The translations under genes were made by a program, and so were the position numbers. Shown here one piece after another: positions 1 through 16,140 of a stretch of DNA of 64,000 nucleotides (position 1 is the stretch's first letter; every line of letters starts with the position of its first letter). Origin of the DNA: an uncultured Acidobacteriota bacterium (lineage in GTDB: Bacteria > Acidobacteriota > Thermoanaerobaculia > Multivoradales > JAHEKO01); the NCBI GenBank assembly GCA_963713825.1, contig CAVQNG010000003.1:1-64000 (forward strand). Reading direction: 5' to 3'. Below the pieces are notes generated by a model that searched no databases, was not told the DNA's origin, and saw nothing but the letters and a program-made list of their open reading frames with translations.

Positions 1-1671
1 GTCCAGGAATGTCCCAACTCAAATTCCCCGGCCTCAGTGCCGTCCAGGACGCCGTATAGCTTGATCCGGCCGTCAGACCAGATCTCTATCTTGTCACACA
101 GGGCGCGGATGATCTTCTGGCGTGTTTTCAGTATGGCGTTTCGGTCGTCTTGAGACATGGCTTTCAATTCGTCGAGTGTCTGGTCGATATCCGGCAACTC
201 GGCCTGGAGCGCGGTCAGGAACTGCGTCGCGTAGTCCAACCCGGACTGCACCTTGACTGCATTATCTCTCAATTCCGTCAGCCTGTCAAGCTCCTCGCGC
301 CAGTGCTTTCGAGCCTCCTCGGTTTCGTCCATCCGGGCGTCAAACTCCGCTTCAGAGATCTTGCCTCTTGCCGCCTGCCGCTGGAAGAAGGCCCGTTCCT
401 GGTCAACCTCAGCAAGTTTCAGGCGGACGTGGGCGATTTCGCCACTCACGCTCTCTCCTTCTGCTCTGAGGGCCTCGATGTGGCCCGCGACCTGGGCCCG
501 GATCAGGTCGGGTTGCTTGATTCCATTGTCTACGATGTAGCGCCACACAACCCAGTCCAACGTCTTCCCATCCCAAGAGAAGGGGAGGGGATGCTCTTCC
601 TCGGGGAACATATTGGCGTTCACGCATTGATATCGATGCCTCGGGATCTGGCGTAGGGTTCGATTGTAGGTTCCGTCTGCCACCCGGTGGTACGAAAAGT
701 TCTGTGCATTGGTGGAGGTCAGCCGCCCACACTCGGCGCAGTGCAGGAGGCCCTGCAAGAGATACACGCCTCTGGCGTTTCGAGTCGAGAGCCGCTGGTT
801 GCGCTTCAGTTTGGCCTGCACACGCTGCCATTGCTCGAGGGTGATGATCTGTGGGATTTCTATGGTGTACTCCTCGCCATCGGCAAATCGCCACGAGAGG
901 CTGCCGGTGTATTCCTTGGAGTTCAGGATACCATAGATGCTTGCCGGGTTCCAATCGTGTAGCCGCTCCACTTCTCTCTTTTGGCCTGCCTCCCGCGCCA
1001 AGAGTCTGTTTCGCAGCCGAATCACCGAGACGCCGCTGTCGTACCAGTCAAAGACATGTTTGACGATCTGGACCTCTTGCTCATCGGCAAGCACGATTCT
1101 GCGCCCGCGCTTGCCTGGCTCGCGCACACATTCGTATCCCAATCGAATATAGTGCCCTGGCCATCGACCCTGTTGCAGAGTCGCGATCTTGCCCATTCTG
1201 GAGCGCTCCACGCGACGTTTGTTTTCCTCGCGCCAGATGGTCGCTTTGATGCTCAAGAGTGAACCGATCAATCTCGCCGCCTGTCGCGTCGAACACCTTG
1301 ATCTTGCCTTTGCCGTTTCGCCGAGCATCGCCGGCGTCGAGGGCATCTTCCAAGGCCACAGCAACGCGGGGGTGCCGCACCAAGCGGTCGTCACGCCAAC
1401 ACAGTGCGGCGTCAACCTCCCCAGTCCTCAACCGTTCAAGCATGGCCAGCAGGCCGGGTCGGTCTGCCCGTTCTCCAGAAGGATTGACGATCTTGCCTTT
1501 GTTCGGTGCTTGGGTCGCTCGATAGTTCTCGCAGTCCACAAACGTTTCCAAGACGTTCCAGTCCATACGCTCACAAAGCGCCTGCATGCCGGAAAGCTGC
1601 TGATCGATGCTGGCGCTCTCGTCCTTTGCTTGTTCTTCACTGCTCACTCTCGCGCTCAATACGACATTCAT
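1..1671 (-). CDS. Large serine recombinase (resolvase + recombinase + zinc-ribbon domains); one apparent frameshift near 1255; 3' end runs off the window
   Basis: N-terminus MNVVLSARVSSEEQ...SIDQQL, SGERADRPGL, WRDDRLVR. After a 1-nt shift near 1255 the frame stays open to nt 1 and reads SIKATIWREENKRRVER...LGY...LLQGLLHCAECG...YQC plus a coiled coil, which is typical large serine recombinase architecture. Confidence 0.88.
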
Positions 1672-2024
1672 ACTGCTATCTTCCCTTTGTGTGACGCTGA
1701 GATCTATGCTATGATCCAGCTTGGGCCGGGTGCTGCTGCTGTGGTAGGCTTGACGCCCGGCCCGCCGGTGGGTCAGTGGGTATCCGACAAATCGTCGGCT
1801 GCCGCTGGCCCGCTTCTCTATTCGCCGCTGGCGACGTGCGGCGTTCCGCTGGGCTGCGCGCCAGCCACTCGACCTGGACCACGGCCAACCCCGCTGTCTT
1901 TTCCAGAAAAGCCAAGAGCAGCTCACCGGCCTTGGTCTCGAATAACAGCCACCGTAGAAACATCGTTTCTCACCTCCTTCCCTTTGCTTTGTCTTGTACT
2001 CACTGCAGATGGTCCGCATCCACA

Positions 2025-2319
2025 TCACAGCCCCAGACCGTCGAGATTGGCTGCCACGTCCGCCGGTTCATCGTCAGATTCGGGGACTACCCCCATGCTT
2101 CCGGCCTGCACCAAACGAGGATCCGCTCCCCAGCTTGCGTTCGAGGTCCTTGACCGCCTGGTAAACATCCCCCAGAGTCACGCCCCCACTTCCGAGGTGA
2201 GCGTGAAGGGCATCCCGGATCGCTTTCGATTTCTCTCCCCTGGGCAGTCCTTCCAGATAGCGCAGGATACGCTTGTCCTTCTGGCTGTCCAGAGCGAAAG
2301 ACATCACGACTCTTGCCAT
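2025..2319 (-). CDS. ParR-like / ribbon-helix-helix partition adaptor (probable frameshift near 2115)
   Basis: Small gene directly downstream of the ParM-like gene. MARVVMSFALDSQKDKRILRYLEGLPRGEKSKAIRDAL fits a beta-strand-helix-helix fold. An alternate frame gives a plausible acidic tail VPESDDEPADVAANLDGLGL* ending at 2025. Confidence 0.55.
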
Positions 2320-2358
2320 CGTCTCCCCCTTGTAGTACCCGGTCATAACTACTGGGTA

Positions 2359-3335
2359 CTACCCGAGCCGCTGGGCAAAGCGCCAGTAGCCCAGAGCATT
2401 GGCGAAAACGGGATTGTCTACCACCCGCACATGGGGGAAGGCCCGAGTCAGGTACGGCCCCAGCAATAGGGCGCCACCGCCAGCCACGAGGATCGCCTCC
2501 AGCCCGGCCGCGCCGTTCCACAGTTGTGTGGCTTGGGCGATTACCTGGTCGCCCATCGGCTCCAGCATCGCGTCGATCACGTTCCCAGGTCCACCAGAGC
2601 CCCGAAGTACTTGACGCGGCGCTTGACGATGGCGTCGATCACCTGGTGGTCCCGCAGCTCCAGGTCAGGGCAGTGATTGGTCAGGTATTCGCGTACTGCC
2701 CGGGCCACGTCCCAGGCCCCCAGGTTTATGCTAGCCGTCTCCCGGCCGATCTCTGCCAGGCGATTGACACTCAGCAGGTTCGTGGTCTTGCCGCCAACGT
2801 CGATGACGCCCACTGCCCCGGTAGCCAGGTCGTGGTTCACGATCTTCCCATGGTCGTTTAGCGCCTCGGCTAGCAGTGTCCCGAACGGCTGGGGGATCAC
2901 CCGGCACTCACTCACTTGGAACGTTTGTGCGCGCCGCCCTTCCCTAGCCACTCTGTGGTGGCCGAGGAACCGGTCGCGCAGGGCGTCCTTGTCGGCAGAG
3001 TAGAAGGCCACCGGCAGCCCAGTCACCACCACCAAGTCACACCAGGTGGCCGCGGTAAGCTCGGTGAAACCGGCCAACATCAACCGGCGATACGCATTGC
3101 TGGCGATCCAGCCCCGATCCTCCCGCCGGTCCACGAATCGGCTCTGGGCGACGGCCCCCTCGCCGATGAGCCAGCTCCCATCGCCAGGCAGATCCAGGAT
3201 GATGTGCCCGTCTGCACTGCTGACGGCGAAACGCGCCCGGTCTGGCGTGCCCACCACGGAGGGAAAGGTCACCAGGCGGTCAGGACCAGCCACCGCCTTC
3301 ACAGAACTGTATCCAATGTCGATTCCTACGTTCAT
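2359..3335 (-). CDS. parM: ParM/StbA-family actin-like ATPase (frameshift near 2580)
   Basis: Phosphate-1 GIDIGYSSVK, VVTGLP, VIPQPFG, phosphate-2 IDVGGKTTN. The adenosine motif ILVAGGGA and FANALGY lie in the next frame (ORF 2359..2580). Confidence 0.85.
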
Positions 3336-3369: not shown

Positions 3370-3418
3370 AAACAAAAAACGGCCACCCGATCCCACTGAC
3401 AATGGATCGGGTGGCCGT
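3370..3418 (-). terminator. Intrinsic terminator / attenuator just upstream of parM
   Basis: 15-bp perfect inverted repeat ACGGCCACCCGATCC...GGATCGGGTGGCCGT (3379-3418) followed on the minus strand by a T-rich run. Confidence 0.75.
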
Positions 3419-3422
3419 CTAA

Positions 3423-3451
3423 TTGACGACATAACCAGGCTATGCTAGAAT
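3423..3451 (+). promoter_or_regulatory. Sigma70-type promoter (antisense orientation)
   Basis: TTGACG (3423-3428), 17-nt spacer, TAGAAT (3446-3451) with an extended -10 TG. No convincing plus-strand CDS follows. Confidence 0.65.
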
Positions 3452-3457
3452 AGCATC

Positions 3458-3550
3458 AGCCTGGCTCGCTGTCCTTCCTACGGGTGCGTCAGCGGGTTGG
3501 GTTAGGGCTGTGTTGGTGTTGGCGCACCAGCACGGCCCGTTTTCTTATTT
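3458..3550 (+). ncRNA. Putative ~90-nt antisense small RNA
   Basis: Bounded by the 3423-3451 promoter and a 14-bp stem (3505-3538) that pairs fully only as plus-strand RNA (two G-U pairs) and is followed by GTTTTCTTATTT. Confidence 0.5.
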
Positions 3551-3719
3551 CAGGACATCGGTCCTGTTTTTCAGGTTCCTCGGGCAGGTCTTCCTCTACC
3601 CAACGCTCCAGGTATTCCTTCACGACGGCAGTGATGGTCGTCCCTAGCAAAGCAGCTTTGGCTTTGACACGCCTGTGCAAGTCCTCCGGTAATCGTATGG
3701 TCGTCTTCCGATCTTCCAT
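3489..3719 (-). CDS. CopG/Arc/ParG-like ribbon-helix-helix regulator
   Basis: MEDRKTTIRLPEDLHRRVKAKAALLGTTITAVVKEYLERW is a classic RHH pattern. The C-terminal tail may be a frameshift extension. Confidence 0.75.
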   Translation of the reverse strand: MEDRKTTIRLPEDLHRRVKAKAALLGTTITAVVKEYLERWVEEDLPEEPEKQDRCPEIRKRAVLVRQHQHSPNPTR

Positions 3720-3768: not shown

Positions 3769-3798
3769 ATTATACACCCTATTTGCGCCCGTTGTCAA
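3769..3798 (-). promoter_or_regulatory. Consensus sigma70 promoter for the RHH gene
   Basis: Minus strand TTGACA, 18 nt, TATAAT, about 50 nt upstream of the RHH start. Confidence 0.7.
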
Positions 3799-3923
3799 GT
3801 CTGACTCGGACTGTGCTGGTGACAGGCTATGCGGTTGTAAAAGTGCCAATGGTGGACGAGATCCCCGAATCGCTCGTAGGGCTATTTGTTTCCGGCGATC
3901 TGTGCTTCACCCCTCGACCACAC

Positions 3924-4778
3924 CTACCGGAGTCTCTGTTCTTCTTCAGGAAACTCGCGTTCGTAGTTCAGTAGAGTCCGGCCGGTGATGTTGTAGTTGG
4001 AATGCGCCCAGCGATCCTTGTTCTCGATCAGGCCACTGTCCCGAACGGCCCGATAGTGTTGCACGATCTCGCGGCGTTTGCGAGGCGAGTAGGCGTAGCG
4101 ATCACTCTCTGCCGCTGCATCATCCCGTCCGGGTTCTGTCCTGGATGTTTCCGGGCCTGATTCCCTTTGCTGCTCATCGGGGATCAGTTCGACTTGCACT
4201 CTTGAGTCGTGGTGAAGCTCTGGGTCCTGGTGAGCACGGCCGGGGTGATGACCATTCCTTGCCAGCCGCAGCATCTCGACCAACTCCTGCGGCGGGCAAT
4301 AGCTCAGCGCCTTGTTGGTCGCCTGGGAGAATACATCCAGGGCCAGACGCTTCTCGACCGGTCCTTGGGTGGCAACCGCCGGCGCGGAGCCTCGAATGAA
4401 GGACGCCAGGGTGTCCGGGGGCCAGTAGCGAAGCGCGAACTGGGCGGCGGACAGATACCAGTTTGCAGCCTGGATCGCATGCCGTGAGGGAGGCTGCCAG
4501 TCTGGTCTGGTGAGCCTTCGAACTGCCCCCAAGCGCTTGACTCCCAGCCCAGGGAGGGCTAGCAGCGCCCAATCCGAGACCCCATCCACCTGTTGGAGGG
4601 TGGTGTACCCTGCCTGGACCAGCTTGCGCAGAGCGATCGCCGTGGAGTGGTCATTGCCGGCGGCCAGGGTCTGGGCCAGTTCGTACAGTAGGTTTTCGCC
4701 ATGGGTACGGGCGCGCATCAGCTTGCTTTCCCTCTCCAAACAGAACACGGCCCAATGCACCTCTGATGAGGCATTCAC
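3924..4778 (-). CDS. Hypothetical protein with N-terminal RNAP alpha-CTD/HhH-like segment and possible C-terminal HTH
   Basis: ALRKLVQAGYTTLQQVDGVSDWALLALPGLGVKRL resembles the alpha-CTD/HhH pattern. The C-terminus YSPRKRREIVQHY...YNITGRTLLNY is HTH-like. Start codon uncertain. Confidence 0.5.
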   Translation of the reverse strand: MNASSEVHWAVFCLERESKLMRARTHGENLLYELAQTLAAGNDHSTAIALRKLVQAGYTTLQQVDGVSDWALLALPGLGVKRLGAVRRLTRPDWQPPSRHAIQAANWYLSAAQFALRYWPPDTLASFIRGSAPAVATQGPVEKRLALDVFSQATNKALSYCPPQELVEMLRLARNGHHPGRAHQDPELHHDSRVQVELIPDEQQRESGPETSRTEPGRDDAAAESDRYAYSPRKRREIVQHYRAVRDSGLIENKDRWAHSNYNITGRTLLNYEREFPEEEQRLR

Positions 4779-4847: not shown

Positions 4848-5216
4848 CTACAGCCAGTATTCCCGGTCCTTGAATCCGACGCCGGTGCCGTGGAGGAGCC
4901 GGATGGCGCGCTCGCCATGGCGCCGTTCCAGGTCCACGATCTGTATCAACGCGGGGATACCGTCCTGTAGTTCAATACAGCCTGCCCGAGAGAATTCGAC
5001 GACAAACCTGCCACTCACTCCTGGTAGGGCATGGGCCACACTGTCGGGTAGCATGTCCAGCAGATAGCGCCGGCGCCCTTTCCGGGTTTCCAGCCTTTGC
5101 CGAGCCATGGCGATGGCCGGCTCCAAACTGGGAACAACCGCAAGACCATCGGCAACCAGTTGCCCGATGACTTCCTGAGCGCGAAAGAGCGCTTTCAGAT
5201 CCTGTGTCCTAATCAC
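4848..5216 (-). CDS. Hypothetical protein
   Basis: 122-aa ORF immediately downstream of a clear leftward promoter; no recognisable motif. Confidence 0.5.
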   Translation of the reverse strand: MIRTQDLKALFRAQEVIGQLVADGLAVVPSLEPAIAMARQRLETRKGRRRYLLDMLPDSVAHALPGVSGRFVVEFSRAGCIELQDGIPALIQIVDLERRHGERAIRLLHGTGVGFKDREYWL

Positions 5217-5282: not shown

Positions 5283-5311
5283 AGTATACAGGGTGGAAGG
5301 CAGCCTGTCAA
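5283..5311 (-). promoter_or_regulatory. Leftward sigma70 promoter
   Basis: Minus strand TTGACA (5306-5311), 17 nt, TATACT (5283-5288). Confidence 0.7.
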
Positions 5312-5424
5312 TCGTGTGTTCCTACGATCTTGATCTCGTATGTTCTTGCGCGCGGTATCGTACCTTTCCACCGAAAGATCGTAGGAACTACGTATGCCGC
5401 TCGCGCAAGAACTACGTATGCCGC
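5312..5424. repeat. Array of direct and inverted repeats between divergent -35 elements; probable regulator binding sites
   Basis: 16-bp direct repeat GAACTACGTATGCCGC at 5385 and 5409. 14-bp inverted repeat GTTCCTACGATCTT (5318) / AAGATCGTAGGAAC (5375). 11-bp inverted repeat at 5342 / 5402. TCG-initial units at 5312, 5336, 5358, 5379, 5401. Confidence 0.7.
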
Positions 5425-5426
5425 GC

Positions 5427-5455
5427 TTGACCTGGTGCGGGATTTCTGATATGAT
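5427..5455 (+). promoter_or_regulatory. Rightward sigma70 promoter of the signalling cassette
   Basis: TTGACC (5427-5432), 17 nt, TATGAT (5450-5455) with extended -10 TG, 35 nt upstream of the regulator ATG. Confidence 0.65.
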
Positions 5456-5489: not shown

Positions 5490-6113
5490 ATGCTCACTGT
5501 AGCCGTGATTGATGATCACCCAGCGACCCGACTGGGGATCATCGCAGCCCTGAACAAAGTCCCTGATATCGAAGTCGTTGGAGAAGCAGGTTCCGGGCCT
5601 GAACTGGCAGCGCTGCTGAAGGGAAGCGTGCCGGATGTGTTGCTCCTGGACATCAATATGCCCGAGTTCAATGTCTTCGAGGCTGTTCCCCGGATGCAGA
5701 AGCAGTATCCCCAGATGCGGATTATCATCGTGACCATTCAGGAGGACGAGAAGCACGTCTGTGGCCTCGTGGAACTTGGGGTGGATGGCTACCTCATCAA
5801 AGAGGAGCCCATGACCGAGTACGTCAAAGCGATCCGCGCTGTTTCTGCGGGCGGGACGTACTTTAGCCAGCGCGTGGTCCCTATCATGTGGGGCCTGAAT
5901 TCTAATGAAAGTACCCCCAGCCTCACCCCTCGTGAACTGGAGGTGATGGAGCTGATGGCCACAGGCGCAAAAGCAGATGCAATTGCGGAGGAGCTGTTCA
6001 TCACTCCACGAACAGTGACAACCCATGCATCGAACATCTACCGGAAGCTGGGGGCAACCAACCGCGCCGCAGCCGTGCGCCAGGCTATCAAGTTCGGTCT
6101 CATATCTGTATAG
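5490..6113 (+). CDS. NarL/LuxR-family response regulator (ComA-like)
   Basis: VAVIDDHP, DVLLLDINMP (phospho-Asp), GYLIK, and LuxR HTH LTPRELEV...TVTTHASNIYRKLG. Confidence 0.95.
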   Translation: MLTVAVIDDHPATRLGIIAALNKVPDIEVVGEAGSGPELAALLKGSVPDVLLLDINMPEFNVFEAVPRMQKQYPQMRIIIVTIQEDEKHVCGLVELGVDGYLIKEEPMTEYVKAIRAVSAGGTYFSQRVVPIMWGLNSNESTPSLTPRELEVMELMATGAKADAIAEELFITPRTVTTHASNIYRKLGATNRAAAVRQAIKFGLISV

Positions 6114-6130: not shown

Positions 6131-6994
6131 TTGTTGCGCAGGGGAAAGACAGTGAGAACACCGGGCAAGTCACCGTCAAGAGCCAAATACTTCTGGCGTG
6201 CTGCTGGCTACTTTGTGGCCCTGGCTGTCATCAATCTGGTTGCTCATGGCGAACTCGGGTACCTCCTTTCCGAATACCTGCCATCCTGGCTAGCGACTGC
6301 CCTTGAGAGCGTCGTCTATCTGGTAGGCGTCCTGGCTCTGACCTGGGCCTTCTGTCGCTTTGTGGATCACAGTTCGCTCACTGATCTGGGTTTGCAGAAA
6401 CGAGGCTGGCTCGCCAAGCTGGCTGCGGGTTGGGGGCTGGGAGCGCTCCTGATGCTCGTCGTATTCGGCATCCTGGTAGCGGGTGGCTGGCTCACGATCG
6501 AAAGCTCTGCCTGGCAACCATTGGATTTGGCCGCTGCGATCCTGGTCGCCGTTGTGGTCGGCTTCAACGAGGAGCTCGCGTTCCGCGGATACATCATGCA
6601 ACGCCTGGGCCAGGCTTGGGGGATGCCGCTCGCTGTAGCTGGGTCATCCATTCTCTTTGGCCTGGTGCACGTACTCAATCCCAACGCCACTGCTCTGGGC
6701 ATTCTGAGCGTTTGTCTCTCCGGAGTGCTGTATGCTTGTGCATATCTTGTCACCCGCTCTCTGTGGTTGCCCATGGGGCTGCACATGAGTTGGAACATCG
6801 TGCAGATGCACGTCCTGGGATTTCCGGGCTCAGGACACGTCAGACCATCAATCATGCGCTCGGTCACCCAGGGGCCAGATCTGGTGACAGGTGGCGCTTT
6901 CGGTCCCGAAGGGGGGATCGTGGTCATCGGGGTTTCGTTGGCAGCGATCGCCCTTTTGCTCCTTCGATATCGGACAACCCTTACCAAAGACTAA
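6131..6994 (+). CDS. CPBP/Abi (type II CAAX prenyl protease-like) intramembrane glutamic endopeptidase
   Basis: Motifs EELAFRGY, LFGLVH, GLHMSWN and FGPEGG; multiple TM helices. Start may be the GTG at 6152. Confidence 0.92.
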   Translation: MLRRGKTVRTPGKSPSRAKYFWRAAGYFVALAVINLVAHGELGYLLSEYLPSWLATALESVVYLVGVLALTWAFCRFVDHSSLTDLGLQKRGWLAKLAAGWGLGALLMLVVFGILVAGGWLTIESSAWQPLDLAAAILVAVVVGFNEELAFRGYIMQRLGQAWGMPLAVAGSSILFGLVHVLNPNATALGILSVCLSGVLYACAYLVTRSLWLPMGLHMSWNIVQMHVLGFPGSGHVRPSIMRSVTQGPDLVTGGAFGPEGGIVVIGVSLAAIALLLLRYRTTLTKD

Positions 6995-7015: not shown

Positions 7016-7255
7016 ATGAAAGACACAGGATTGTTGCAAATCACACATCGGCTTGTCACGGACGAAGAGTACAGAACGTGGTTTATGACCTCCCCCAAAC
7101 AGGCCTTGATAACCGAATTGGGGATTTCTCCGAGCGCCTACGACTCCCTTGTCGCTGCGCTTCCGCTCTTGCTCGCCGGTGGGTTGTTTGTCGTGGGGGG
7201 AGGAGAAGGGCCTGAGCCGCTTTCCACCGACAACGACTGGGGCAGGCGGGGCTGA
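7016..7255 (+). CDS. Putative ComX-like / RiPP precursor peptide (79 aa, Trp75)
   Basis: Strong RBS (AGGAGG near 7000). Helical leader RLVTDEEYRTWFMTSPKQALITELGIS, hydrophobic Gly-rich segment, C-terminal STDNDWGRRG. Adjacent to the prenyltransferase gene. Confidence 0.72.
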   Translation: MKDTGLLQITHRLVTDEEYRTWFMTSPKQALITELGISPSAYDSLVAALPLLLAGGLFVVGGGEGPEPLSTDNDWGRRG

Positions 7256-7310: not shown

Positions 7311-7340
7311 GCCCTGCGTTGGAAAACGCAGGGCGTTTTT
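7311..7340 (+). terminator. Stem-loop / intrinsic terminator after the precursor gene
   Basis: GCCCTGCGTT-GGAA-AACGCAGGGC followed by GTTTTT. Confidence 0.7.
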
Positions 7341-7350
7341 GATACGGATC

Positions 7351-8295
7351 ATGTTGTCTATCTCTGAGCAAGTGGAGATCGTCCACGAGATCATTGGCGA
7401 AAACCTGGCGTTCTGCAGGGCTGCTCTCTTCCCCGACTTTGCAGGGCTACTGGCAACAGTGCTGAATGACAGAGCGCCTTCACCCGACAGGCCTCCCTGG
7501 TTGATGTTGCCGATTCTGACCTGCGAAGCACTTGAGGGAGACTCCGAGCGAGCCTATCACGTAGCTGCTGCCCTCGAGATAGGGCGGATTGCCGCCGGTT
7601 GCCTGGATGAATGGCAGGACCAGGACACCGATGATGCCCTATGGCGGACCGTAGGCCCAGCGCAGACGGTCAATTTGGCTACAGCCATGATTGGGCTCTC
7701 GCAGCTATCCCTCACCCGCCTCGCCGATCTTGGCATGGACCCAGCGGTCATCCTGAACCTGCAGAAGGAATTCTCGTTGACCTTGCTCTACATGTGCGAA
7801 GGACAACACGCTGATTTGAGCGATGATGGTTCCCTCAGCGACTACGAAGAGACAGTTGGAGCCAAAACCGGCTCGCTGCTGAGCCTCGGCTGTCGAGCAG
7901 GCGCTATGGTTGCCGGGGCAGATGCAGAGACTGTCGCATGCTACGGCGATTTTGGGTACAGCCTGGGCATTCTGGCCCAGGTGTGGAACGATTTCTACGG
8001 TCTGGCAGGCACCGGGGGAAAAAGAGACGTTGGTCATAGTCGCACTTTGCCCATCCTGGCTGCATTGGCTCTGGATGGAGTGCACTATCAACCCGACTCT
8101 GCTGAGGGCCAGGCAGGGCAACTGTATGCTCTGGCCCAGTTCCAGGCTTTGCATCAACGTGCTGCTGAGGCATTAGCCAGGTGCCCGGCTCCCGGACACC
8201 TGGCCAGGTTTCTGGATGTGTATTCGATCAATCATCTGCTCCAGGGGGAATCATCGCAGGTTCGTTCATCCGGCGAGGGCGATGATGCTAAGTAG
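7351..8295 (+). CDS. Polyprenyl-synthetase-fold enzyme, ComQ-like peptide (Trp) prenyltransferase
   Basis: AAALE, first acidic motif LDEWQD without the downstream RRG, GQHADL, KTGSL, second motif QVWNDFYG (ND rather than DD), RTLPIL. Confidence 0.8.
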   Translation: MLSISEQVEIVHEIIGENLAFCRAALFPDFAGLLATVLNDRAPSPDRPPWLMLPILTCEALEGDSERAYHVAAALEIGRIAAGCLDEWQDQDTDDALWRTVGPAQTVNLATAMIGLSQLSLTRLADLGMDPAVILNLQKEFSLTLLYMCEGQHADLSDDGSLSDYEETVGAKTGSLLSLGCRAGAMVAGADAETVACYGDFGYSLGILAQVWNDFYGLAGTGGKRDVGHSRTLPILAALALDGVHYQPDSAEGQAGQLYALAQFQALHQRAAEALARCPAPGHLARFLDVYSINHLLQGESSQVRSSGEGDDAK

Positions 8296-10684
8296 ACTGT
8301 TCAGCGCAGAGGGAGTCAGGCGCCTGTCGATGCAGGCCCTGCTGTTGCTGGGACTGGCCATTCTTGTCAGCGGCCTGGCAATGTTCTTCTATGACATATC
8401 GCTGCCGTACGCCGGCTTTGAGGTCGCCGGTGCCACAGGTGTTGGGGCCATCCATCCCGGGGGTCCGGCTGCATCTGCCGGACTTGGTATGGATGACCGG
8501 ATCCTGGACATCCAGGGAGAAGGATCGCCGGGAGACGCGTACCTGCATCCCGACCAGGAGGCCCTCCAACTGACCGTGTTGCGTGATGGGCAGGAAGTGT
8601 CCCTGAACATCGGCTTGACCTCACCACCGCCCAAGGTGACTTTCAACAAGGTTGGCTACTATGTCATGGCCCTGGCCTTCTGGATCATTGCCATGATCGC
8701 CCTGGTGTTCAAGCCCCGCGATCCAGTGTCGCAGCTCTTTGTCTTGGTCGCTCTGCTCGGCACATTGGGCATCGTCGTCTGGCGCATGGCGGACATTGGT
8801 GCATTCTGGGCGAATTTGACGATGCCTGCTATCGCCCTGGCCGTTGGTCCAATTTTCGTCCACTATCACACGGTCTTTCCTGAACGCATCAGCTTCAGGG
8901 GCAAAAGGGCTCTGTTGGTAGGTTTATACTGTATCAGCCTGATTCTGCTGTTGCTATCCACGGCGTCGGATCTGATCTATCTCGACAGGCAACTCCACAA
9001 TCTCGGCGGAGGGCCGCCGTCCCTTGCTGCGGTGATCAAGGTGTACTTCTGTGCTTGTTTGATCATCGGCCTGACGCTGCTGGTACGGACCTATCGCGAA
9101 TCAAGCTCCGAGACAGGCAGGCGACAGGTCGCGCTGATTATGCTCGGCACTGGTTTGGCATCGTTGCCGCTCATGCTCTTCATCATGCTGCCCCAGATTC
9201 TCCACACTCCCTACGTCGTGCCGAGCTGGATAAGCCTTTTGTTGTTGATGCTCATCCCGCTCAGCTATCTCTACGCCATGTACCGGCACAACCTGATGAA
9301 GCTGGACCGGATCGTCAATCGCTCGGTCGTGTATTTTCTCCTGTCCTTGAGTTTCATTGCCATGTACCTTGCTTTCTCTCTGGTTACCCGGTGGTTGATG
9401 CCCGATGTCTTTTCGGGGCCTGCTACTCTGGTAAACGTCGTACCCGTCCTGGTTCTCGTGTTCCTGCTCGAGCCCCTGAAGCAAAAGATCCAGGCACTCG
9501 TCGACGGCGTTTTCTATGGCGGTTGGTACGAACACAATGAGTTTGTCCATGGTGTGAGTAGTGCGCTCAAAGATGCGCTGGATAGCCAGACCGTCGCCGA
9601 TCTGTTGGTGAATGACGTGGCAGACACCATGCGTTTCAAGGAAGTCGCATTACTACTGCCGGAGGTGGGAGGTGACGAGGACACGTTTTGCGTACGAGAA
9701 CGCAATGGCTTCGATGCAATCATGCCTGTTCGCCGCGGGAGCGCTCTGGCTGCTTCCCTTTTAGAAGTCGGAGAGCCGATTCAACATGGAGTATTGCGTG
9801 ACCGATTGCGAGTTGATCCAGCCGCCCAGGAGGAGCTTGCTGTCTGGTCTGAGGTCGGGGTGCAGATGTGGGTCCCTCTGGTGCAGCGGGACAGGCTGAT
9901 GGGGATCCTGGTGCTGGGGAGCAAGGTCGCTGACGAGTTCTTTGCCAAGCAGGATCACCATGCTCTGGGTACCCTGGCTCACCAGGCTGCCGTCTCCCTT
10001 GCCCGTGCCCAGCTCGTTGACCGGCTTCAGGGCCAGATCCACGAGATCCAGGCCCTGACCAAACAGGTCATCGCCCTGCAGGAGAGAAACCAGAAGCGGT
10101 TGTCCCAGGAGCTCCACGACGACGTCGCCCAGGACCTGGCCTTCGTTCTCCGATTGCTGGAAGAACCGGTGGAGACTCACTCCCCCAGGAAGATCATCGG
10201 CGCACGCGACGTGATCCAGCAAGCCCTCGATCGTTTGCGCGACCTGATGTTTGAGCTACGCCCTCCGAACCTGGGCGACGACCTGGAAAAGGCGCTGAAG
10301 GAGTACGTCGCCTCTTTCCGGAGAAGACGGAATCTGCCCGTCGTCCTCCACACCAATGGCAACGGGGTATCGGTGCCGAAAGAGGTCAGGATCGCTCTGT
10401 TTCGCATTTGCCAGGAGAGTCTGAACAACACCTTGATGCACGCCGAGGCAAGGCAAGTTGACGTCACGCTGGACCTGCAAGACCGTAGGGTTCGCCTGGT
10501 GGTCAAAGACGACGGCGTGGGCTTTGAGGTGCCAGCCCACCTGGGCTCCCTCATCGACCAGCAGCATCTGGGCCTGGTCGGCATGCGGGAGCGGGCGGAG
10601 GGCGTCGGCGGTACTTTCAATCTGGAGTCGGAGCCCGGTCAGGGCACGCGGATCTCCGTCGACGTGCCCTTGTGCCTATCCTGA
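8282..10684 (+). CDS. ComP-like membrane sensor histidine kinase (PDZ-like + multi-TM + GAF + HisKA_3 + HATPase)
   Basis: PDZ-like GGPAASAGLGMDDRIL, about 9-10 TM segments, GAF-like VPLVQRDRLMGILVLG, H-box ELHDDVAQ, N-box QESLNN, DDGVGF, GLVGMRER. Overlaps the prenyltransferase stop by 14 nt. Confidence 0.93.
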   Translation: MMLSRLFSAEGVRRLSMQALLLLGLAILVSGLAMFFYDISLPYAGFEVAGATGVGAIHPGGPAASAGLGMDDRILDIQGEGSPGDAYLHPDQEALQLTVLRDGQEVSLNIGLTSPPPKVTFNKVGYYVMALAFWIIAMIALVFKPRDPVSQLFVLVALLGTLGIVVWRMADIGAFWANLTMPAIALAVGPIFVHYHTVFPERISFRGKRALLVGLYCISLILLLLSTASDLIYLDRQLHNLGGGPPSLAAVIKVYFCACLIIGLTLLVRTYRESSSETGRRQVALIMLGTGLASLPLMLFIMLPQILHTPYVVPSWISLLLLMLIPLSYLYAMYRHNLMKLDRIVNRSVVYFLLSLSFIAMYLAFSLVTRWLMPDVFSGPATLVNVVPVLVLVFLLEPLKQKIQALVDGVFYGGWYEHNEFVHGVSSALKDALDSQTVADLLVNDVADTMRFKEVALLLPEVGGDEDTFCVRERNGFDAIMPVRRGSALAASLLEVGEPIQHGVLRDRLRVDPAAQEELAVWSEVGVQMWVPLVQRDRLMGILVLGSKVADEFFAKQDHHALGTLAHQAAVSLARAQLVDRLQGQIHEIQALTKQVIALQERNQKRLSQELHDDVAQDLAFVLRLLEEPVETHSPRKIIGARDVIQQALDRLRDLMFELRPPNLGDDLEKALKEYVASFRRRRNLPVVLHTNGNGVSVPKEVRIALFRICQESLNNTLMHAEARQVDVTLDLQDRRVRLVVKDDGVGFEVPAHLGSLIDQQHLGLVGMRERAEGVGGTFNLESEPGQGTRISVDVPLCLS

Positions 10685-10701: not shown

Positions 10702-11768
10702 ATGCGCATCGCCATTGTCGGAGCGGGTCCGGCCGGCTGCCACCTGGCCCATTGCCTTGCCAACACCGAGCACGAAATCCTGCTCTTTGACCATCGCGCA
10801 CGCCCGCCCCACGAGGCGGGTTACGAGAAACCGTGCGGCGGGGGCCTGGGTCCCCTCATCGGCCGGCACCTCCCCGACGTGATGGCCCTGCCGTTTTCGC
10901 GCCACTGCCCAACCCGCCTGCTGCTCCGGGCCTCGGACGGCAGCCAGGTCGAGCAGATCCTTGACCAACCTCCCTGGGCCATCGTCTCCAGGGAAGACCT
11001 TGGCCGGGCGTTGCTCGACCGCGCCCTGGCCAACGGCACGTTCGCCTCGTGCGCCAGCGGGTGGTTGACCTGGAGCAGACCGGGGACGGCTGGTGCCTGC
11101 GTACCGCAGTCGGGCCAGGTGTTCTCAGCCGACTTTTTGGTGGGTGCCGATGGTGTGCGGAGCATCGTCCGGCGGCGCGTGGTGGGGCCGATCCCCCGGC
11201 AGCACCTGGGCCTGGCCGTAGGCTACCTGGTGCGGGGCATGCCAGACGCCCTCATATTCCAGACCTTTGCCGATCTGGAGGGTTACCTCTGGTCCTTTCC
11301 CCGCCCTGACCACGCCAGCGTGGGCATCGGCAGCCGGCTGGGTGCCGTTCCTCCTCGGGACCTTTGGCAGCGGTTGGATCGGTTTCTCGACGACACGTGT
11401 CCAGGGGCCAGCAGGGATAGGCGCTGGGCTGCGCTTGCTGCCGATGGCTCGGGGATCCGACGCTGTGGGATACACCCTGCGCAGGGCCGGGATGGGCCTT
11501 GCTGGGGGACGCGGCGGGCCACGTCCATCCCATCACCGGCGAGGGCATCGCCTACGCTCTGTGGTCGGCGGAGCTGCTGGCCGAGGCATTCGGGCAGGGA
11601 GATCCACAGGTCTACGAAGGCCTGTGGCGGGAACGGTATGGGCGCGGGTTCATGGCTGCCAGCGGCATGTTGCGCCCGGTGGATCTGGACATCGGTGCCT
11701 ACGAGATCGTATTTCAGGTGGCGATGGCCGTGTTTCAGCTGACAATGGCGATGGCCCTGTCAAGCTAA
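10702..11768 (+). pseudogene. Geranylgeranyl-reductase-family FAD oxidoreductase with about 4 apparent frameshifts (errors or pseudogene)
   Basis: IVGAGPAG, EKPCGGG, LVGADG..S, GYLWSFP, LGDAAGHVHPITGEGIAYA. Frame switches near 11040, 11108, 11434 and 11452. Confidence 0.8.
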
Positions 11769-11972: not shown

Positions 11973-12017
11973 TCAAAACTGTTGAGCTACCCCGCATTTG
12001 GCAAACTGGAGCTCTCG

Positions 12018-12227
12018 ATGAACGATGAGATTCTAGAAAACTACCTCGGAATGGATGAGGTGGCTCGCTGTCTCTCCATTCATGTGGAGAGCGCCCGCCG
12101 CCTGGCCCGTCAGGGAAAGATCCCGGCTGTGCGTGTGGGAAACAAATGGCTTGTGCGTGTAGACGTCTTGAAGGAGTTTTCACGGCAATACGACCCTCGG
12201 CGTGGGCGCCGGGCACTCGAAAGCTGA
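12018..12227 (+). CDS. Excisionase-family (HTH_17, MerR-like) DNA-binding protein
   Basis: YLGMDEVARCLSIHVESARRLARQGKIPAVRVGNKWLV. Confidence 0.85.
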   Translation: MNDEILENYLGMDEVARCLSIHVESARRLARQGKIPAVRVGNKWLVRVDVLKEFSRQYDPRRGRRALES

Positions 12228-12233
12228 GCCCTT

Positions 12234-13004
12234 GTGGAGAAAACCATGACAATGCAGAACTCGAAGGGTATGGATCCACCGCGCATGATTCAGGAAGTAC
12301 CCTGGCTGCAAGCGAAGCTAGCAATCAGGGAAAGCCTTCGCTTTGACGACTTCTCTGCGTTTCGGGCCTTTCTGCAAGAGAACCTGCCATACAACTCTCC
12401 GTCTACCAGACGGCAGCACGCACAGACCATAGCACTGTACTTTTTTCCGGGCCAGTCACTGGACGTGTTGCCTCGGCGAGCTTGGGAAGCATATCGGGAT
12501 GATGACTTGCTGGAAGAGCTGATGCGCCATCAGTACCTGGCTCAGGAGCCAACCGTGGCTCACTTCGTCGCCAGCTACCTGAGCACAATGGCCCCGGGTG
12601 TCATTCTTGAGCGCTCAGTGTTGGAAACATACATCGAAGAAGTGGATCCGAAGAACCGCCCGAAAATGGTCCGTCGTCTTGGGGAAACGCTCCGCCGTCT
12701 GGGGTTCGTTGTTCGACAGCGCCAAAGAGACATTGTAGCACAGCTCAAGCCTGGCAAGACGCCTTTCTTGCTCCTGGTGCATCGCCTCTTTGCGCCTTCT
12801 CCGCGCATCGTCACCTTGCGCGACATCTTGGCCCATCGGTTCTGGCTGTATCTCGGCCTGCGTGAAGAAGGAGAGGTTCGCCGCATTCTGCACGAGGCCA
12901 GTGCCCAGAGCTTGATCGCCGGCTATGCTAGAGTGGATCAGCTTGAGCAGATCACAACGAGTTACACACTCGACCAGTGGCTTGAGAAGAGGCTGCGGCT
13001 GTGA
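12234..13004 (+). CDS. Hypothetical protein, possibly BrxA-like
   Basis: 256 aa; NLPYNSPSTRRQ and helical composition reminiscent of BrxA/DUF1819; first of three coupled genes before a P-loop ATPase. Confidence 0.45.
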   Translation: MEKTMTMQNSKGMDPPRMIQEVPWLQAKLAIRESLRFDDFSAFRAFLQENLPYNSPSTRRQHAQTIALYFFPGQSLDVLPRRAWEAYRDDDLLEELMRHQYLAQEPTVAHFVASYLSTMAPGVILERSVLETYIEEVDPKNRPKMVRRLGETLRRLGFVVRQRQRDIVAQLKPGKTPFLLLVHRLFAPSPRIVTLRDILAHRFWLYLGLREEGEVRRILHEASAQSLIAGYARVDQLEQITTSYTLDQWLEKRLRL

Positions 13005-13492
13005 GACGTGACCAATTCGCTGCCGAGATTGACTCGATTCTGGCGGGCTCCCACCCCTATCGCCACCTCTACGTCTGGCTCGGCGAGATCGATGATCTGA
13101 CCTCGCTCCTAGCTTCTCGCTGTGCTCAGCGCCTGGATGCTTTTCAGCTAGCTGCCGAGCTGAGCCACTTTCCCTCCGCAGTAGACGAAGCGGGCGACCT
13201 GCTACGCGATGCTCTGCGAGCGAGACTGAGGGTTTGGCATGCCACCAATGGGGATGCCCATCCAGTTCTCGTGATCACTGGCTGCGAGCTGTTGGCGCGG
13301 TATCGAGTGGGACTGCAACCATTCTATGAGGCGTTGACCGCTCGCTCGATTGTCATACTGGTCTGTTCGGCAGAGGATGCTGCCTACGATCCAGCCGATC
13401 GGCTGCCCAACTATGTACGTTGCGAGCCTCGGTCCACATTTGCTCATTTGGGGCGACTTGTTGAGGAAAATCACGTTATAGTAGAGAGCTAG
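13001..13492 (+). CDS. Hypothetical protein, possibly BrxB/BrxF-like degenerate P-loop protein
   Basis: GTGA overlap with the upstream gene; PVLVITGCELLARY strand-helix motif; size and position match BrxB/BrxF. Confidence 0.4.
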   Translation: MRRDQFAAEIDSILAGSHPYRHLYVWLGEIDDLTSLLASRCAQRLDAFQLAAELSHFPSAVDEAGDLLRDALRARLRVWHATNGDAHPVLVITGCELLARYRVGLQPFYEALTARSIVILVCSAEDAAYDPADRLPNYVRCEPRSTFAHLGRLVEENHVIVES

Positions 13493-13507
13493 ACAAGGAT
13501 TGCGCAT

Positions 13508-14558
13508 ATGCCCCGCGAGAAACTTCAACACTTGGTCATTCCCAAGCCGATGCCAGAAGACGTAACGCTGTCCCTGAGGCGTTCCTTCGACAATCCGCTG
13601 CAGACAGTGGACGACTACTGGTTCACTGACACCATCCGGGAGTACTTTGAGCGCATTGTCGAACTGGCAGTCCAAGGTAGAGGTCAAGGGTACTGGGTTG
13701 AGGCCGAGTATGGTGCCGGCAAGACTCACTTTCTTGCAACACTCGCCTGCCTGTTGGCCAATGCCGCCGACGATGCTCTGTGGGACCTGGTCAAGGATGA
13801 TGCCATCAGGAACTACCGGCGCCGTCTTGCGTCCCAGCGGCTGTTCCCGGTAATACTATCGCTCAAGGGGCAGAGCGGCGCTGACGAGTGGAGCGGCCGC
13901 CAGCTACTGAGCGTCCTGGAACAGGAGGGCTTTGGTGAGACACTGAAACGGATCGGCCTTAGCGGCCAGATCCAGGTCACCTCCACCGACGAACTCCTAG
14001 CATGGTTTGAGGAGCGGGATGCTGGGCTGCGGGCTGCCATAGAGCGGTATGTTGAATCTGAAACCGGTTGCACCCCTGCTGACTACCTTGCTCGCTACGG
14101 CCGGCGCGCGTTCGGCCGAGGCCCTACGTGACTATTGTGATGCCAACGATTTTCAGCCCCGCACGTCTGCGAGCGTACGAGAGCGCCTCGTTAACCTTTT
14201 CGACCAACTGACCTTGCCGGCTTTGGTCGCCAAGGGGGTTGAACCCTACACTGGCTTGCTTGTTGTCATTGACGAGTGGGAATCCTGGGATCGCCTGCAC
14301 CCGGCAGGCTCATCAGAAGCTGCCCATGACGAGGAGGTTCTGGAAACCCTTTCCTTCGTCCTGGCCAAAAATCTGGGCCTGCCAGTCCTAACTCTGGTCG
14401 GCTCCCAGACCGCGGTGCCAGCCAGGCTCCGCGGCGGCCAGGAAGGCGATCGATTCATAAACATGCCGTTGTTGAAGGGGGCCGGCGAGCGCGAGTACGA
14501 TATCATCGTCTCTCATCGCGTGCGCAAACTGGACCCTGAACGGACACCGGAGATCAAT
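13508..14558 (+). CDS. P-loop ATPase (BrxC/PglY-like), frameshift near 14110, truncated at the junction
   Basis: Walker A AEYGAGKTHFL and Walker B LLVVIDEW in the next frame. Sequence degenerates after DPERTPEIN. Confidence 0.65.
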
Positions 14559-14559
14559 C

Positions 14560-16140
14560 CTCCGCCTCCTCGCCCTGGTCGGACTCTGCCTGTTCCTCTT
14601 CTGCTTCGGGCTGCACTCCAGGGTGCTCTGGGATGTCGACGAAGGCATGCACGCCGTGATGACCAAGAACATCTTGCTGCACGGGGACTGGGTCACTCCG
14701 ACGTTCAATGGTGAGAACTTCTACGACAAACCCATCCTGTTCAACTGGCTGGGCGCGATCTGCTTCCTTCTCTTCGGCTTCAACGAATTCGCAGCCAGGC
14801 TTCCGGCTACGATCTTCGGGACGGCCGGCGTCCTGGTGACCTACTACATGGGTCGCAAGATGTTCGGGCCGCGAATCGGCTTCCTGGGAGGGATCATCCT
14901 AGCCGCCTTGGCCGAGTACATCCTGTTGTCGAGAGTCGTCGTTCACGATATTGCGCTGACCTCGTTTACGACATTGGCACTCTGCTTCTTCTATTTCGGT
15001 CTTGTCGATGAAGAGCGCAGAAGACGGTACTTCCTTCTATTCTGGGTCGCCGCCGGCTTCGCGGTCCTCGCCAAGGGTCCACTCGGGCTGGTGCTTCCCG
15101 GTCTGGTCATCGGAGTGTTCCTGCTCTCGACTCGAAGGCTCAGCCTGATCAAGGAGTTGCAGGTCGGCTGGGGCCTTCTGATCCTGCTCGCCGTAGCCGG
15201 TCCTTGGTACATCGCGATCAGCCTTCGCAACCCCGATTACCTGCGGTACTTCATCCTGGAGAAGAATCTCGGCAGCTTCTCTTCGTCCAACACCCACCAT
15301 GCGGGACCCATCTATTTCTACTTTCGGGCCCTGTCGTTCGGGTTGCTGCCCTGGGTCACCTTCGTCCCGCTGGCCACAATTGGGGCGATCCGCAATCGGG
15401 ACAGAGGGCCTGCAGACGCTGTCCTCTTCCTGCTGATCTGGGCCGGTTCTATCTTCGCCTTCTTCTCCCTGGCCACCGCCAAGCTCGAAAGCTACATCCT
15501 GCCCATCTTTCCGGCCGTCGCTCTATTGCTCGCACTGTACTGGTACGACGCCCTGAACGACCCGAGTCCCACCCGCAGGAGAGGGCTTCTCTGGTCCTGG
15601 TCGCCACTCGTCGGACTCATGGTCGCAGCGGTCCTCTACCTATGGTTGGTGCCGCCCACCTCGTTGCAGGCCAAGGCCGGACTCGACCCACCGAGGGTCT
15701 ACGGGTTCATCTGGACGGTCGCCGCGCTCGTCATCCTGGTGTTCGTGCTGCTGTGGATCAAGAAGTCGGCCGCTGCCATGGTGACGATCGTCGTGCTCAC
15801 CGGAACGGCGATGGCTCTATTCAATCTGGTCCTGGCTCCACCCGTGGGTCCCTATCGAGCCACCAAGGAACTGGGCCTGAGGCTCGACCAGAGGCTCCCT
15901 CCTGGTGACAAGTACGTCTTCTACCAACGGATTCGCGACTCGGCGATGTTCTACACAGACCGGGAGGCCATCGTCTTGGAGAAGCCGTCTGATATGCAGG
16001 AGCTCCTGCAGTCGAAGAACCGCGAGTACTGCATCCTCGACGAACGTCGCTTGCAAGAGCTCGACGGCCTGAAGGACCTGTTCTTCATCCTCGATCAGGA
16101 CGGCAACAAGTACCTGATCTCCAATCGGCCCGATCCCTGA
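14560..16140 (+). CDS. ArnT/PMT-family (GT39/GT83-like) membrane glycosyltransferase, 5'-truncated
   Basis: LWDVDEG, FYDKPILFNW, EFAARLP, LAKGPLG, YILPIFP. The frame extends upstream as a TM helix (LRLLALVGLCLFLF) to 14560 with no start codon. Confidence 0.9.
   Translation, partial: LRLLALVGLCLFLFCFGLHSRVLWDVDEGMHAVMTKNILLHGDWVTPTFNGENFYDKPILFNWLGAICFLLFGFNEFAARLPATIFGTAGVLVTYYMGRKMFGPRIGFLGGIILAALAEYILLSRVVVHDIALTSFTTLALCFFYFGLVDEERRRRYFLLFWVAAGFAVLAKGPLGLVLPGLVIGVFLLSTRRLSLIKELQVGWGLLILLAVAGPWYIAISLRNPDYLRYFILEKNLGSFSSSNTHHAGPIYFYFRALSFGLLPWVTFVPLATIGAIRNRDRGPADAVLFLLIWAGSIFAFFSLATAKLESYILPIFPAVALLLALYWYDALNDPSPTRRRGLLWSWSPLVGLMVAAVLYLWLVPPTSLQAKAGLDPPRVYGFIWTVAALVILVFVLLWIKKSAAAMVTIVVLTGTAMALFNLVLAPPVGPYRATKELGLRLDQRLPPGDKYVFYQRIRDSAMFYTDREAIVLEKPSDMQELLQSKNREYCILDERRLQELDGLKDLFFILDQDGNKYLISNRPDP

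Follow-up and report, generated by a model that had tools for sequence, protein, structure and literature searches.

Divergent promoters and an operator-like repeat array conserved beside a predicted peptide-signalling cassette on mobile elements of sediment Chloroflexota

Introduction

What do two divergent promoters and the repeats that fill the space between them control, and does that control extend from a predicted peptide-signalling cassette to the mobility of the DNA that carries it? The question is raised by a locus within a 64,000-nt stretch of contig CAVQNG010000003.1 (assembly GCA_963713825.1; the stretch is called the window below, and its genome G000). Transfer of the integrative element ICEBs1 is set by element-encoded peptide signalling of the Rap-Phr type, and that of pLS20 is reportedly set in the same manner by a Rap-Phr peptide of its own. 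Rap-Phr systems use unmodified, imported peptides and cytoplasmic RRNPP receptors, with neither kinase nor prenyltransferase, unlike the cassette described here. Prenylated pheromones of the ComQ type are known as chromosomal signals of Firmicutes, and a census from 2014 detected them in no other phylum. The sole Chloroflexota enzyme studied, StheQ, has no known biological role according to the accessible text of its preprint (10.64898/2026.08.29.745113).

Results

Divergent promoters

The leftward promoter P_L (minus strand, 5283–5311; –35 at 5311–5306, –10 at 5288–5283) reads TTGACA-17-TATACT and agrees with the consensus at 11 of 12 positions. The rightward promoter P_R (plus strand, 5427–5455; TTGACC-17-TATGAT, 10/12, with an extended –10 TG) lies ahead of the signalling operon, and 115 bp separate the two –35 boxes. 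Both promoters had been proposed, at this distance, in a first-pass annotation of the sequence, and both are present and conserved. Promoter-like sites by themselves are weak evidence (8 were observed in 12 kb, with 3.1 ± 1.8 expected), and we accepted these two because of their conservation across loci. Eleven loci, the window included, have DNA upstream of the regulator gene, the remaining loci being too short, and P_R was found in all 11. P_L was found in all nine loci with an intact spacer, a count that leaves out L017, which ends too early, and L022, which has an insertion sequence in the array. The –10 box of P_L is identical in all nine; its –35 box is TTGACA in seven, TTGACG in one and TTGTGG in one, so that the promoter is near-consensus in 8/9. 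The regulators of the promoter-bearing loci have pairwise identities of 37–94%, and the promoter pair is kept even where the regulator is ~45% identical, which argues that the pair is an old and selected feature.

Repeat array

As first described, the array has five units, starting at 5312, 5336, 5358, 5379 and 5401. The repeats claimed for it, a 16-bp direct repeat (5385/5409) and perfect inverted repeats of 14 bp (5318–5331/5375–5388) and 11 bp (5342–5352/5402–5412), were all located and are exact. Among 3000 random 115-mers from the genome, one had a direct repeat of at least 16 bp, one had an inverted repeat of at least 14 bp and none had the combination; no dinucleotide shuffle out of 200 matched either repeat score of the array.

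Reading each unit as an imperfect palindrome (a hexamer, 3–4 nt and an inverted hexamer) describes the array better and places the fifth unit at 5403–5417. Unit 1 (5312–5327, 16 bp), a predicted site for a regulator dimer, abuts the –35 box of P_L and is centred at –43.5; unit 2 (5336–5351, 16 bp) is centred at –67.5 of P_L. Unit 3 (5358–5374) is degenerate, the weakest and most variable of the five. Unit 4 (5379–5393, 15 bp), the best palindrome, is centred at –76 of P_R, and unit 5 (15 bp) at –52 of P_R. These centres assume a start site set by the –10 box (taken as –12 to –7) rather than by mapping. The centre-to-centre spacings are 24, 22.5, 20 and 24 bp, or 1.9–2.3 helical turns, and the array is therefore not strictly in phase. 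Its description as phased units about 21–24 bp apart holds as to the regular units; the spacing is 20–24 bp, and the phasing is only loose.

Across loci the spacers are 90–220 bp in length and fall into mutually unrelated sequence groups, and a unit period of 23–25 bp holds in groups whose array sequences are unrelated. Compared with shuffles, the internal repeats of L008, L010 and L003 reach little or no significance, and for the L010 and L017 arrays no motif was obtained. Units are conserved above linkers only in L008 (58/79 in units and 17/36 in linkers), not in the close relatives L007 (71/79 and 34/36) and L026 (73/79 and 33/36). The half-sites of L008 are kept while the palindrome centres are changed, which is the pattern expected of a dimer site. 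Among the short-read contig variants listed, at least 17 of 79 unit positions and at least 11 of 36 linker positions are affected; unit 3 has six variable positions and unit 4 has one. In L022 (1250–2490) a transposase gene is inserted in the promoter-proximal array, with duplication of the target, and parts the array from P_R.

By inspection, the array contains no LexA-type dyad (GAAC-N4-GTTC). An RNA structure was also rejected, because the array is upstream of both promoters and would be transcribed by neither; the only Rfam match is to a SymR-like RNA elsewhere.

Predicted binding of the regulator to the array

The gene next to P_R encodes a NarL/LuxR-type response regulator (5490–6113, plus strand; Pfam Response_reg, E 1e-20, and GerE, E 3e-20), which we aligned with 10 relatives. 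The array likely consists of sites for dimers of this protein, predicted to serve both promoters. Array groups match the recognition-helix groups of the regulator, and the residues that vary between array groups are at helix positions used by NarL for base contacts; NarL specificity is set by three helix-9 residues, as given in the accessible part of PMC10853779. The same source describes, at E. coli yeaR and ogt, a NarL dyad (7-2-7) of 16 bp directly upstream of the –35 box and centred at –43.5, and unit 1 is likewise a 16-bp dyad that abuts the –35 box with its centre at –43.5, given the assumed start site. Compared with yeaR and ogt as described there, the heptamer here is different, there are 4–8 units instead of one or two, and the core promoter is near-consensus.

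Co-variation was examined over seven loci by exact Mantel tests, with L007 and L026 excluded as near-copies of the window. Spacer similarity followed the identity of the regulator (r 0.76, p 0.016), its HTH (r 0.75), the CAAX protease (r 0.75) and the kinase (r 0.71), with p values of 0.005–0.016 over the regulator, CAAX and kinase comparisons that are uncorrected over 11 tests and draw on three informative pairs. It was weakly tied to ComQ (r 0.37) and, over the same seven loci, uncorrelated with ParR (0.16), ParM (0.03), the ribbon-helix-helix (RHH) protein (–0.03), Orf284 (–0.01) and the reductase (–0.34). Within the co-varying block, no protein other than the regulator is recognisable as DNA-binding. 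The co-variation is informative owing to the mosaic make-up of the elements: between the window and L003, ParM is 85% identical (ParR/ParM 81–85%) and RHH 71%, while the arrays are unrelated and the regulators 49% identical; between L005 and L023 the array is the same and the regulators are 75% identical, with RHH at 32%. As array and regulator are neighbours, the co-variation may in part reflect inheritance as a block.

A motif search upstream of orthologous regulators, suggested as a check in the first-pass annotation, found related sites at matching offsets in held-out loci. A half-site dyad model built from three loci recovered four L008 sites at the same offsets, at ranks 1, 3, 7 and 11 of ~29,000; the unit 4 type is at rank 1 both in the window and in held-out L008, unit 3 is at rank 115, and the unit 1 offset of –43.5 recurs in L008. 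This model was used in place of a one-sided 10-nt motif model, which missed the L008 sites. With the L003 sites as query, the L011 sites took ranks 1, 2 and 5; with those of L005 as query, sites in L023 took the top seven ranks of that locus. The L005/L023 sites had their top match inside the IS-split spacer of L022, whose recognition helix has the same D-F-H residues as those of L005 and L023. Units of the L005/L023 group read CTG-N10-CAG, and a lux-box-like site in the accessible portion of PMC13705386 resembles this pattern. For the window motif, four array units take ranks 1–4, and no strong copy was found at the RHH, par or recombinase promoters.

It is very unlikely that the array is bound instead by another protein of the element, namely ParR (with the array as a parC-like centromere), RHH or Orf284. 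Centromeres typically take the form of direct repeats close to parMR, and orf284, with its predicted HTH, adjoins the array, but array similarity tracks none of these proteins, and the HTH of Orf284 is conserved over groups whose arrays are unrelated. A parMRC centromere was specifically rejected in view of the low correlation with ParR, the 2-kb distance of the array from parM and the presence of an array in L005, which has no parMR. Least probable of all are non-functional local duplications inherited with the cassette, which would fit the one 49-bp duplication that makes up the difference between the L005 and L023 arrays and the lack of extra unit conservation in close relatives, but not the arrays of L003 and L011, still alignable at 54% regulator identity, the palindrome abutting the leftward –35 box, or the period shared by unrelated groups.

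Predicted signalling cassette

The rightward operon has the order regulator, CAAX protease, peptide, comQ, kinase and reductase in the window and in its relatives. The CAAX/CPBP intramembrane protease (6131–6994, plus strand; Pfam Rce1-like, E 3.5e-21), whose gene occupies the same position in relatives, is a candidate peptide-processing enzyme. The precursor peptide that follows (7016–7255, plus strand) is 79 amino acids in length and has a Trp five residues from its C-terminus; a Trp at most five residues from the end occurs in 19/19 peptides recovered, from 23 loci tried (4 not recovered). The precursor has no ComX match in Pfam, and its leader has a weak Os1348/NHLP match, below cut-off. 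The ComQ-like prenyltransferase (7339–8295, plus strand; Pfam polyprenyl_synt, PF00348) has the motif DEWQD followed by Q-x-x-N-D. In 65 aligned relatives Q214, N217 and D218 are invariant, as are D90 and D94, and position 91 is E, A or S, not D; the protein thus has the first Asp-rich motif and the pseudo-second motif NDxxx that characterise ComQ-type enzymes. A PDB sequence search with this protein returned general prenyl synthases only and no entry named StheQ. The membrane histidine kinase (8216–10684, plus strand) comprises PDZ-like, transmembrane, GAF, HisKA_3 and HATPase regions (PF07730 and PF02518), the PDZ and GAF matches being partly below cut-off. The last gene encodes a flavoprotein of the geranylgeranyl-reductase family (10702–11768, plus strand), frameshifted here and intact in L003; short-read contigs differ from the assembly at the indels near 11036, 11432 and 11449. 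The reductase, which is 60–77% identical across all groups and independent of the signalling groups, may reduce the prenyl chain of the predicted pheromone. The cassette bears the hallmarks of tryptophan-prenylation signalling, a reading supported by these sequence features, with prenylation itself predicted. Downstream is variable cargo (11982–14558, plus strand), consisting of an HTH_17 protein, two unknown genes and a BrxC-like ATPase (E 1.5e-8) that is cut at a junction.

A PF00348 prenyltransferase with an N-D second motif is common to this cassette, Bacillus ComQXPA and Sphaerobacter StheQ/StheX. The cassette also shares with ComQXPA a short precursor with a C-terminal Trp, a HisKA_3 membrane kinase and a NarL-type regulator, and its hexamer-4-hexamer (6-4-6) palindromic geometry is that of the ComA site as given in the available part of PMC4797271. 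However, the order comQ-comX-comP-comA is absent here, and the half-sites are of the TCGTAG/GCGCAA type instead of the ComA half-site TTGCGG. Further differences from ComQXPA are two extra enzymes, a longer peptide (Bacillus precursors have 52–73 residues) with a weak NHLP-type leader, an Anaerolineae host, an integrative element and the position of the cassette behind a divergent promoter pair. By gene order and operator sequence, the cassette is not a member of ComQXPA. The main text of the preprint on StheQ/StheX of Sphaerobacter (10.64898/2026.08.29.745113), in its accessible form, does not contain the terms 'response regulator', 'kinase' or 'promoter'.

A search with the ComQ alignment found 5 loci in genomes, each labelled Anaerolineae, Anaerolineaceae or Chloroflexota, and 27 in metagenomes; the viral collection, searched with the comQ and orf284 alignments, gave no confirmed locus. 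The phylum-wide comQ search matched 21/401 genomes. Of four weaker comQ loci inspected, three consist of a more divergent comQ-like gene next to a kinase gene. More distant comQ-like genes stand beside related kinases in other Chloroflexota (L052, L053, L054, L095 and L097), in varied gene orders and in some cases with a regulator.

Mobile element

A large serine recombinase (1–1671, minus strand; Pfam Resolvase, Recombinase and Zn ribbon), in two frames in the assembly, is 87–89% identical to that of L003 and of genome G401. A serine recombinase ends the left arm in all six long loci, and the recombinases and flanks differ. The proposal that this DNA is a mobile element gains support from comparison, as the close relative in G401 is a bounded, conjugative element of 120 kb. 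Its recombinase gene ends inside a host thioesterase gene, the 5' half of which is 119,914 bp away and carries a replacement 3' half; the gene is intact in G708. The start of the window (1–13) matches the recombinase side of the G401 attachment crossover, the only side contained in the window. Because the recombinase frame crosses the attachment site, the C-terminus of the protein would differ between the integrated and excised forms. Short-read contigs in X1 and X4 end at positions 2–5 and one in X3 continues, which is only a hint that excision and transfer occur.

The G401 element contains the cassette, BREX and TerY-type defence genes, an SNF2 helicase, RadC, SSB and a candidate initiator. 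Its coupling protein (VirD4) is above the Pfam cut-off, and its VirB4-like ATPase (E 3e-42) is below the NCBIfam cut-off. The candidate relaxase, a 225-aa gene product encoded beside the coupling protein, has a His-rich motif (by inspection), an RHH neighbour and no family match. Close VirB4 relatives occur in 6/401 genomes of the class of G401, kin that are not independent, and four of these six also have comQ or orf284 relatives. G402 has the cassette and no VirB4 match; in G708 the same transfer backbone is present, and 180 kb of its sequence contained neither the cassette nor a match to orf284. A candidate control or transfer-origin sequence precedes the G401 transfer operon (L045, 15300–16300), with an antisense-type promoter and a 21-nt stretch that is nearly identical in G708.

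As judged from these comparisons, a family of integrating mobile elements from sediment Chloroflexota has kept the promoters and array, which together are a real regulatory region of a conjugative element equipped for signalling.

Assembly and host

The first 14.56 kb of the window was probably misjoined to G000 and probably comes from an Anaerolineae host. At the junction (~14,558; 14550–14565), the BrxC-like ATPase gene stops and an ArnT-like gene starts ~40 residues in, both being cut, and in three of four runs the ArnT-like gene runs into different sequence in short-read contigs. The composition of the first 14 kb is at the 99th percentile of distance within its own contig and is nearer to Chloroflexota flanks than to G000. 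LpxC is present in G000 and has no match in G401, G402 or G786. A search of 400 genomes of the class of G000 gave no comQ relative, no paralogous cassette was found in G000, the remainder of the element is absent from that genome, and the thioesterase homologue is intact there. With high probability the junction is a misjoin; that the segment is a real but decayed insertion in G000 is less likely. Positions 12001–14400 had no cover in four runs, which by itself is not evidence. Given the probable misjoin, attribution of the element to G000, with which it was assembled, should be avoided.

At several frameshifts in the window the short-read contigs read differently, and assembly errors are the probable cause. 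G000 has, on its 23-kb contig C6, a coupling protein and a VirB4-type ATPase of its own, neither of which matched the G401 counterparts. A low-GC stretch of the window with tRNA-Ala and tRNA-Ile genes (49086–49270) is probably an rRNA operon spacer of the host genome. In an expression check, a single RNA run contained 0.06 of the words.

Leftward arm

The conserved gene served by P_L is orf284 (3924–4778, minus strand), a predicted transcription regulator (model pLDDT 81.5) that is the leftward neighbour of the regulator in 8/8 relatives reaching that far. In the window the first gene after P_L is orf122 (4848–5216, minus strand), an insertion outside the conserved core that is seen in one relative (L007); its unknown protein has no match in Pfam, PHROG or NCBIfam and no usable Atlas match. 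In the structure model of Orf284, an N-terminal domain resembling polymerase αCTD (HhH-like; Z 5.7, rmsd 3.2, 58 aligned) is joined by a helical middle to a three-helix domain at the C-terminus, which is matched best by a transposase-type HTH (Z 5.6, rmsd 3.6, 58 aligned). These matches (Z 5.4–5.7) make Orf284 a predicted DNA-binding protein, fold scores below 6 being leads and not proof; its Atlas matches, all below 0.8, are likewise leads only. Orf284 has no family in Pfam, PHROG or NCBIfam, no Foldseek match at E 0.001 and no profile similarity to the regulator. Distant relatives of its HTH region number well over 100; of 61 compared with Pfam, 60 had no match, and the remaining match was below cut-off.

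A conserved motif at 3833–3846 (minus strand), located 42–48 nt upstream of the –35 box of the RHH promoter in 6/6 loci, is a candidate Orf284 site. It is the top match in 120 kb when held out, and no clear copy was found at the G401 transfer operon. The RHH gene has its own consensus promoter (3769–3798, minus strand; 12/12 in the window and 10–12/12 in all six loci) and encodes a protein of ~55 amino acids (3553–3719, minus strand; Pfam RHH_1, PHROG Arc-like) that is likely an autorepressor; an indel at 3556 differs in contigs of 4/4 runs. Opposite the RHH–parM leader are an antisense promoter, present in 6/6 loci, and a SymR-like small RNA (3423–3541, plus strand; Rfam RF01809, E 1.4e-5, 43.6 bits, below the gathering score of 61). 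An intrinsic terminator (3370–3419, minus strand) with a 17-pair stem, and with a T-run in all six loci, directly precedes parM or its replacement in each of the six long loci, and four of its stem pairs have compensatory changes on both sides. The pairing pattern at 3370–3545 suggests antisense-controlled attenuation. By inspection, base pairing between the terminator stem and the first hairpin's 5' arm seems feasible, and no SymE-like gene was recognised among the ORFs scanned.

Beyond the terminator are genes for a ParM-like actin (2359–3335, minus strand; Pfam ALP_N, E 2.8e-26; frameshift near 2586 in the assembly) and a small ParR-like protein (2074–2346, minus strand), assigned by position and conservation and with no Pfam match. 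Between parR and the recombinase gene, an ORF of ~50 codons (1800–1963, minus strand), conserved in L003, L008 and L011 and followed by a conserved hairpin, is a candidate directionality factor. An element variant without parMR (L005, 5323–6638) has two other genes behind the same terminator, one for a membrane protein with an HTH at its C-terminus and one for a 154-aa product.

The first-pass annotation had the regulator controlling its own cassette and also the leftward arm toward the partition and recombinase genes. Control of both promoters remains likely; the direct leftward path does not stand. P_L faces orf284 (plus orf122 in the window and one relative), and the RHH promoter, the SymR-like antisense RNA and the terminator intervene before the partition and recombinase genes in 6/6 loci long enough, so that any control of mobility would be indirect. 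An indirect path from P_L via Orf284 to these genes is plausible.

Discussion

On the sequence evidence we consider it probable that a prenylated peptide acts through the kinase and the phosphorylated regulator to produce autoinduction at P_R and control of orf284 at P_L. ComQ would prenylate the Trp of the precursor peptide, the CAAX protease would trim the peptide and the reductase may modify its lipid. The membrane kinase would sense the prenylated peptide and switch on the regulator, which, once phosphorylated, would fill units 4 and 5 and amplify the signalling operon. At units 1 and 2 it would control P_L, with activation somewhat the likelier direction: the geometry centred at –43.5 favours activation, and the 11/12 match of P_L to the consensus argues against a need for it. 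Orf284 would then act at the motif above the RHH promoter and, via a gate formed by RHH, antisense RNA and terminator, control partition, recombinase, excision or transfer. This passage from Orf284 through the gate to excision or transfer is the least certain step, and we regard it as possible rather than probable. Since each regulator variant has its own array, the elements would form separate signalling groups.

It is doubtful, though conceivable, that the regulator controls both promoters for an output unrelated to mobility, tuning the signalling operon and the defence cargo while Orf284 has another job. In the window, L003, L011, L017 and L023 the cassette is followed by defence systems, the partition and recombinase genes have a promoter and terminator of their own, and G708 carries the backbone for transfer with no cassette. 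Against this, the cargo differs in kind and strand between loci, and orf284 lies between the array and the RHH–antisense–terminator–recombinase arm in all six long loci, despite their differing recombinases. An unlikely alternative concerns the sign of control: the regulator would bind the array but repress P_L, perhaps activating P_R only, so that the peptide would report neighbours already carrying the element and shut mobility down, in the way that Rap-Phr peptides act on ICEBs1 and reportedly on pLS20. P_L is near-consensus in all but one of its loci, and a dimer abutting a strong –35 box can occlude polymerase contacts; however, –43.5 is a documented activating position for NarL, and L023 combines a degenerate P_L –35 box with the longest array, which suits dependence on an activator.

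Two known systems offer analogies for this circuit. In Staphylococcus agr P2/P3, a peptide quorum operon and an effector gene are likewise divergent with regulator sites between them, and the layout here may work like agr built from ComQXPA-type parts. According to the available text of PMC4227749, AgrA is a LytTR protein that uses direct repeats near –60, whereas the regulator here has a NarL-type HTH and palindromes at –43.5 and –52/–76; moreover, the signal here is predicted to be prenylated and the effector is a protein. The TraR-FseA-RdfS cascade of ICEMlSym, in which a quorum regulator acts on a second-tier activator and thereby on excision (PMC10359603, in the part available), is the best model for the step from P_L to orf284, and Orf284 is possibly an FseA-like second tier. 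ICEMlSym as described there has an AHL signal, a one-component receptor and a tyrosine recombinase, in contrast to the serine recombinase here, and Orf284 has no match to DUF2285 or DUF6499 in Pfam.

The literature search, with sparse coverage of subscription papers and with the supplement of the StheQ preprint (gene clusters) outside its scope, yielded no account of a cassette of this kind, whether in Anaerolineae or on mobile elements, and no case of a lipid-modified peptide as a mobile-element signal. The family described here has a complete predicted circuit, with operator array and effector gene, on integrative elements that bear varied anti-phage systems. We tentatively suggest a master switch, in which conjugative defence elements of Chloroflexota time excision and transfer by a prenylated, possibly lipid-reduced pheromone acting via Orf284, a new two-domain activator, and the RHH/antisense gate, and in which regulator helix, array, kinase and peptide have co-diversified into private signalling groups. 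If so, these elements would hold a natural code-book of NarL helix-to-operator pairs. With regulator helix, operator, kinase and peptide available as matched sets, orthogonality is open to direct testing in E. coli. If the circuit governs transfer, lipid-modified peptides would join the signals used by mobile elements.
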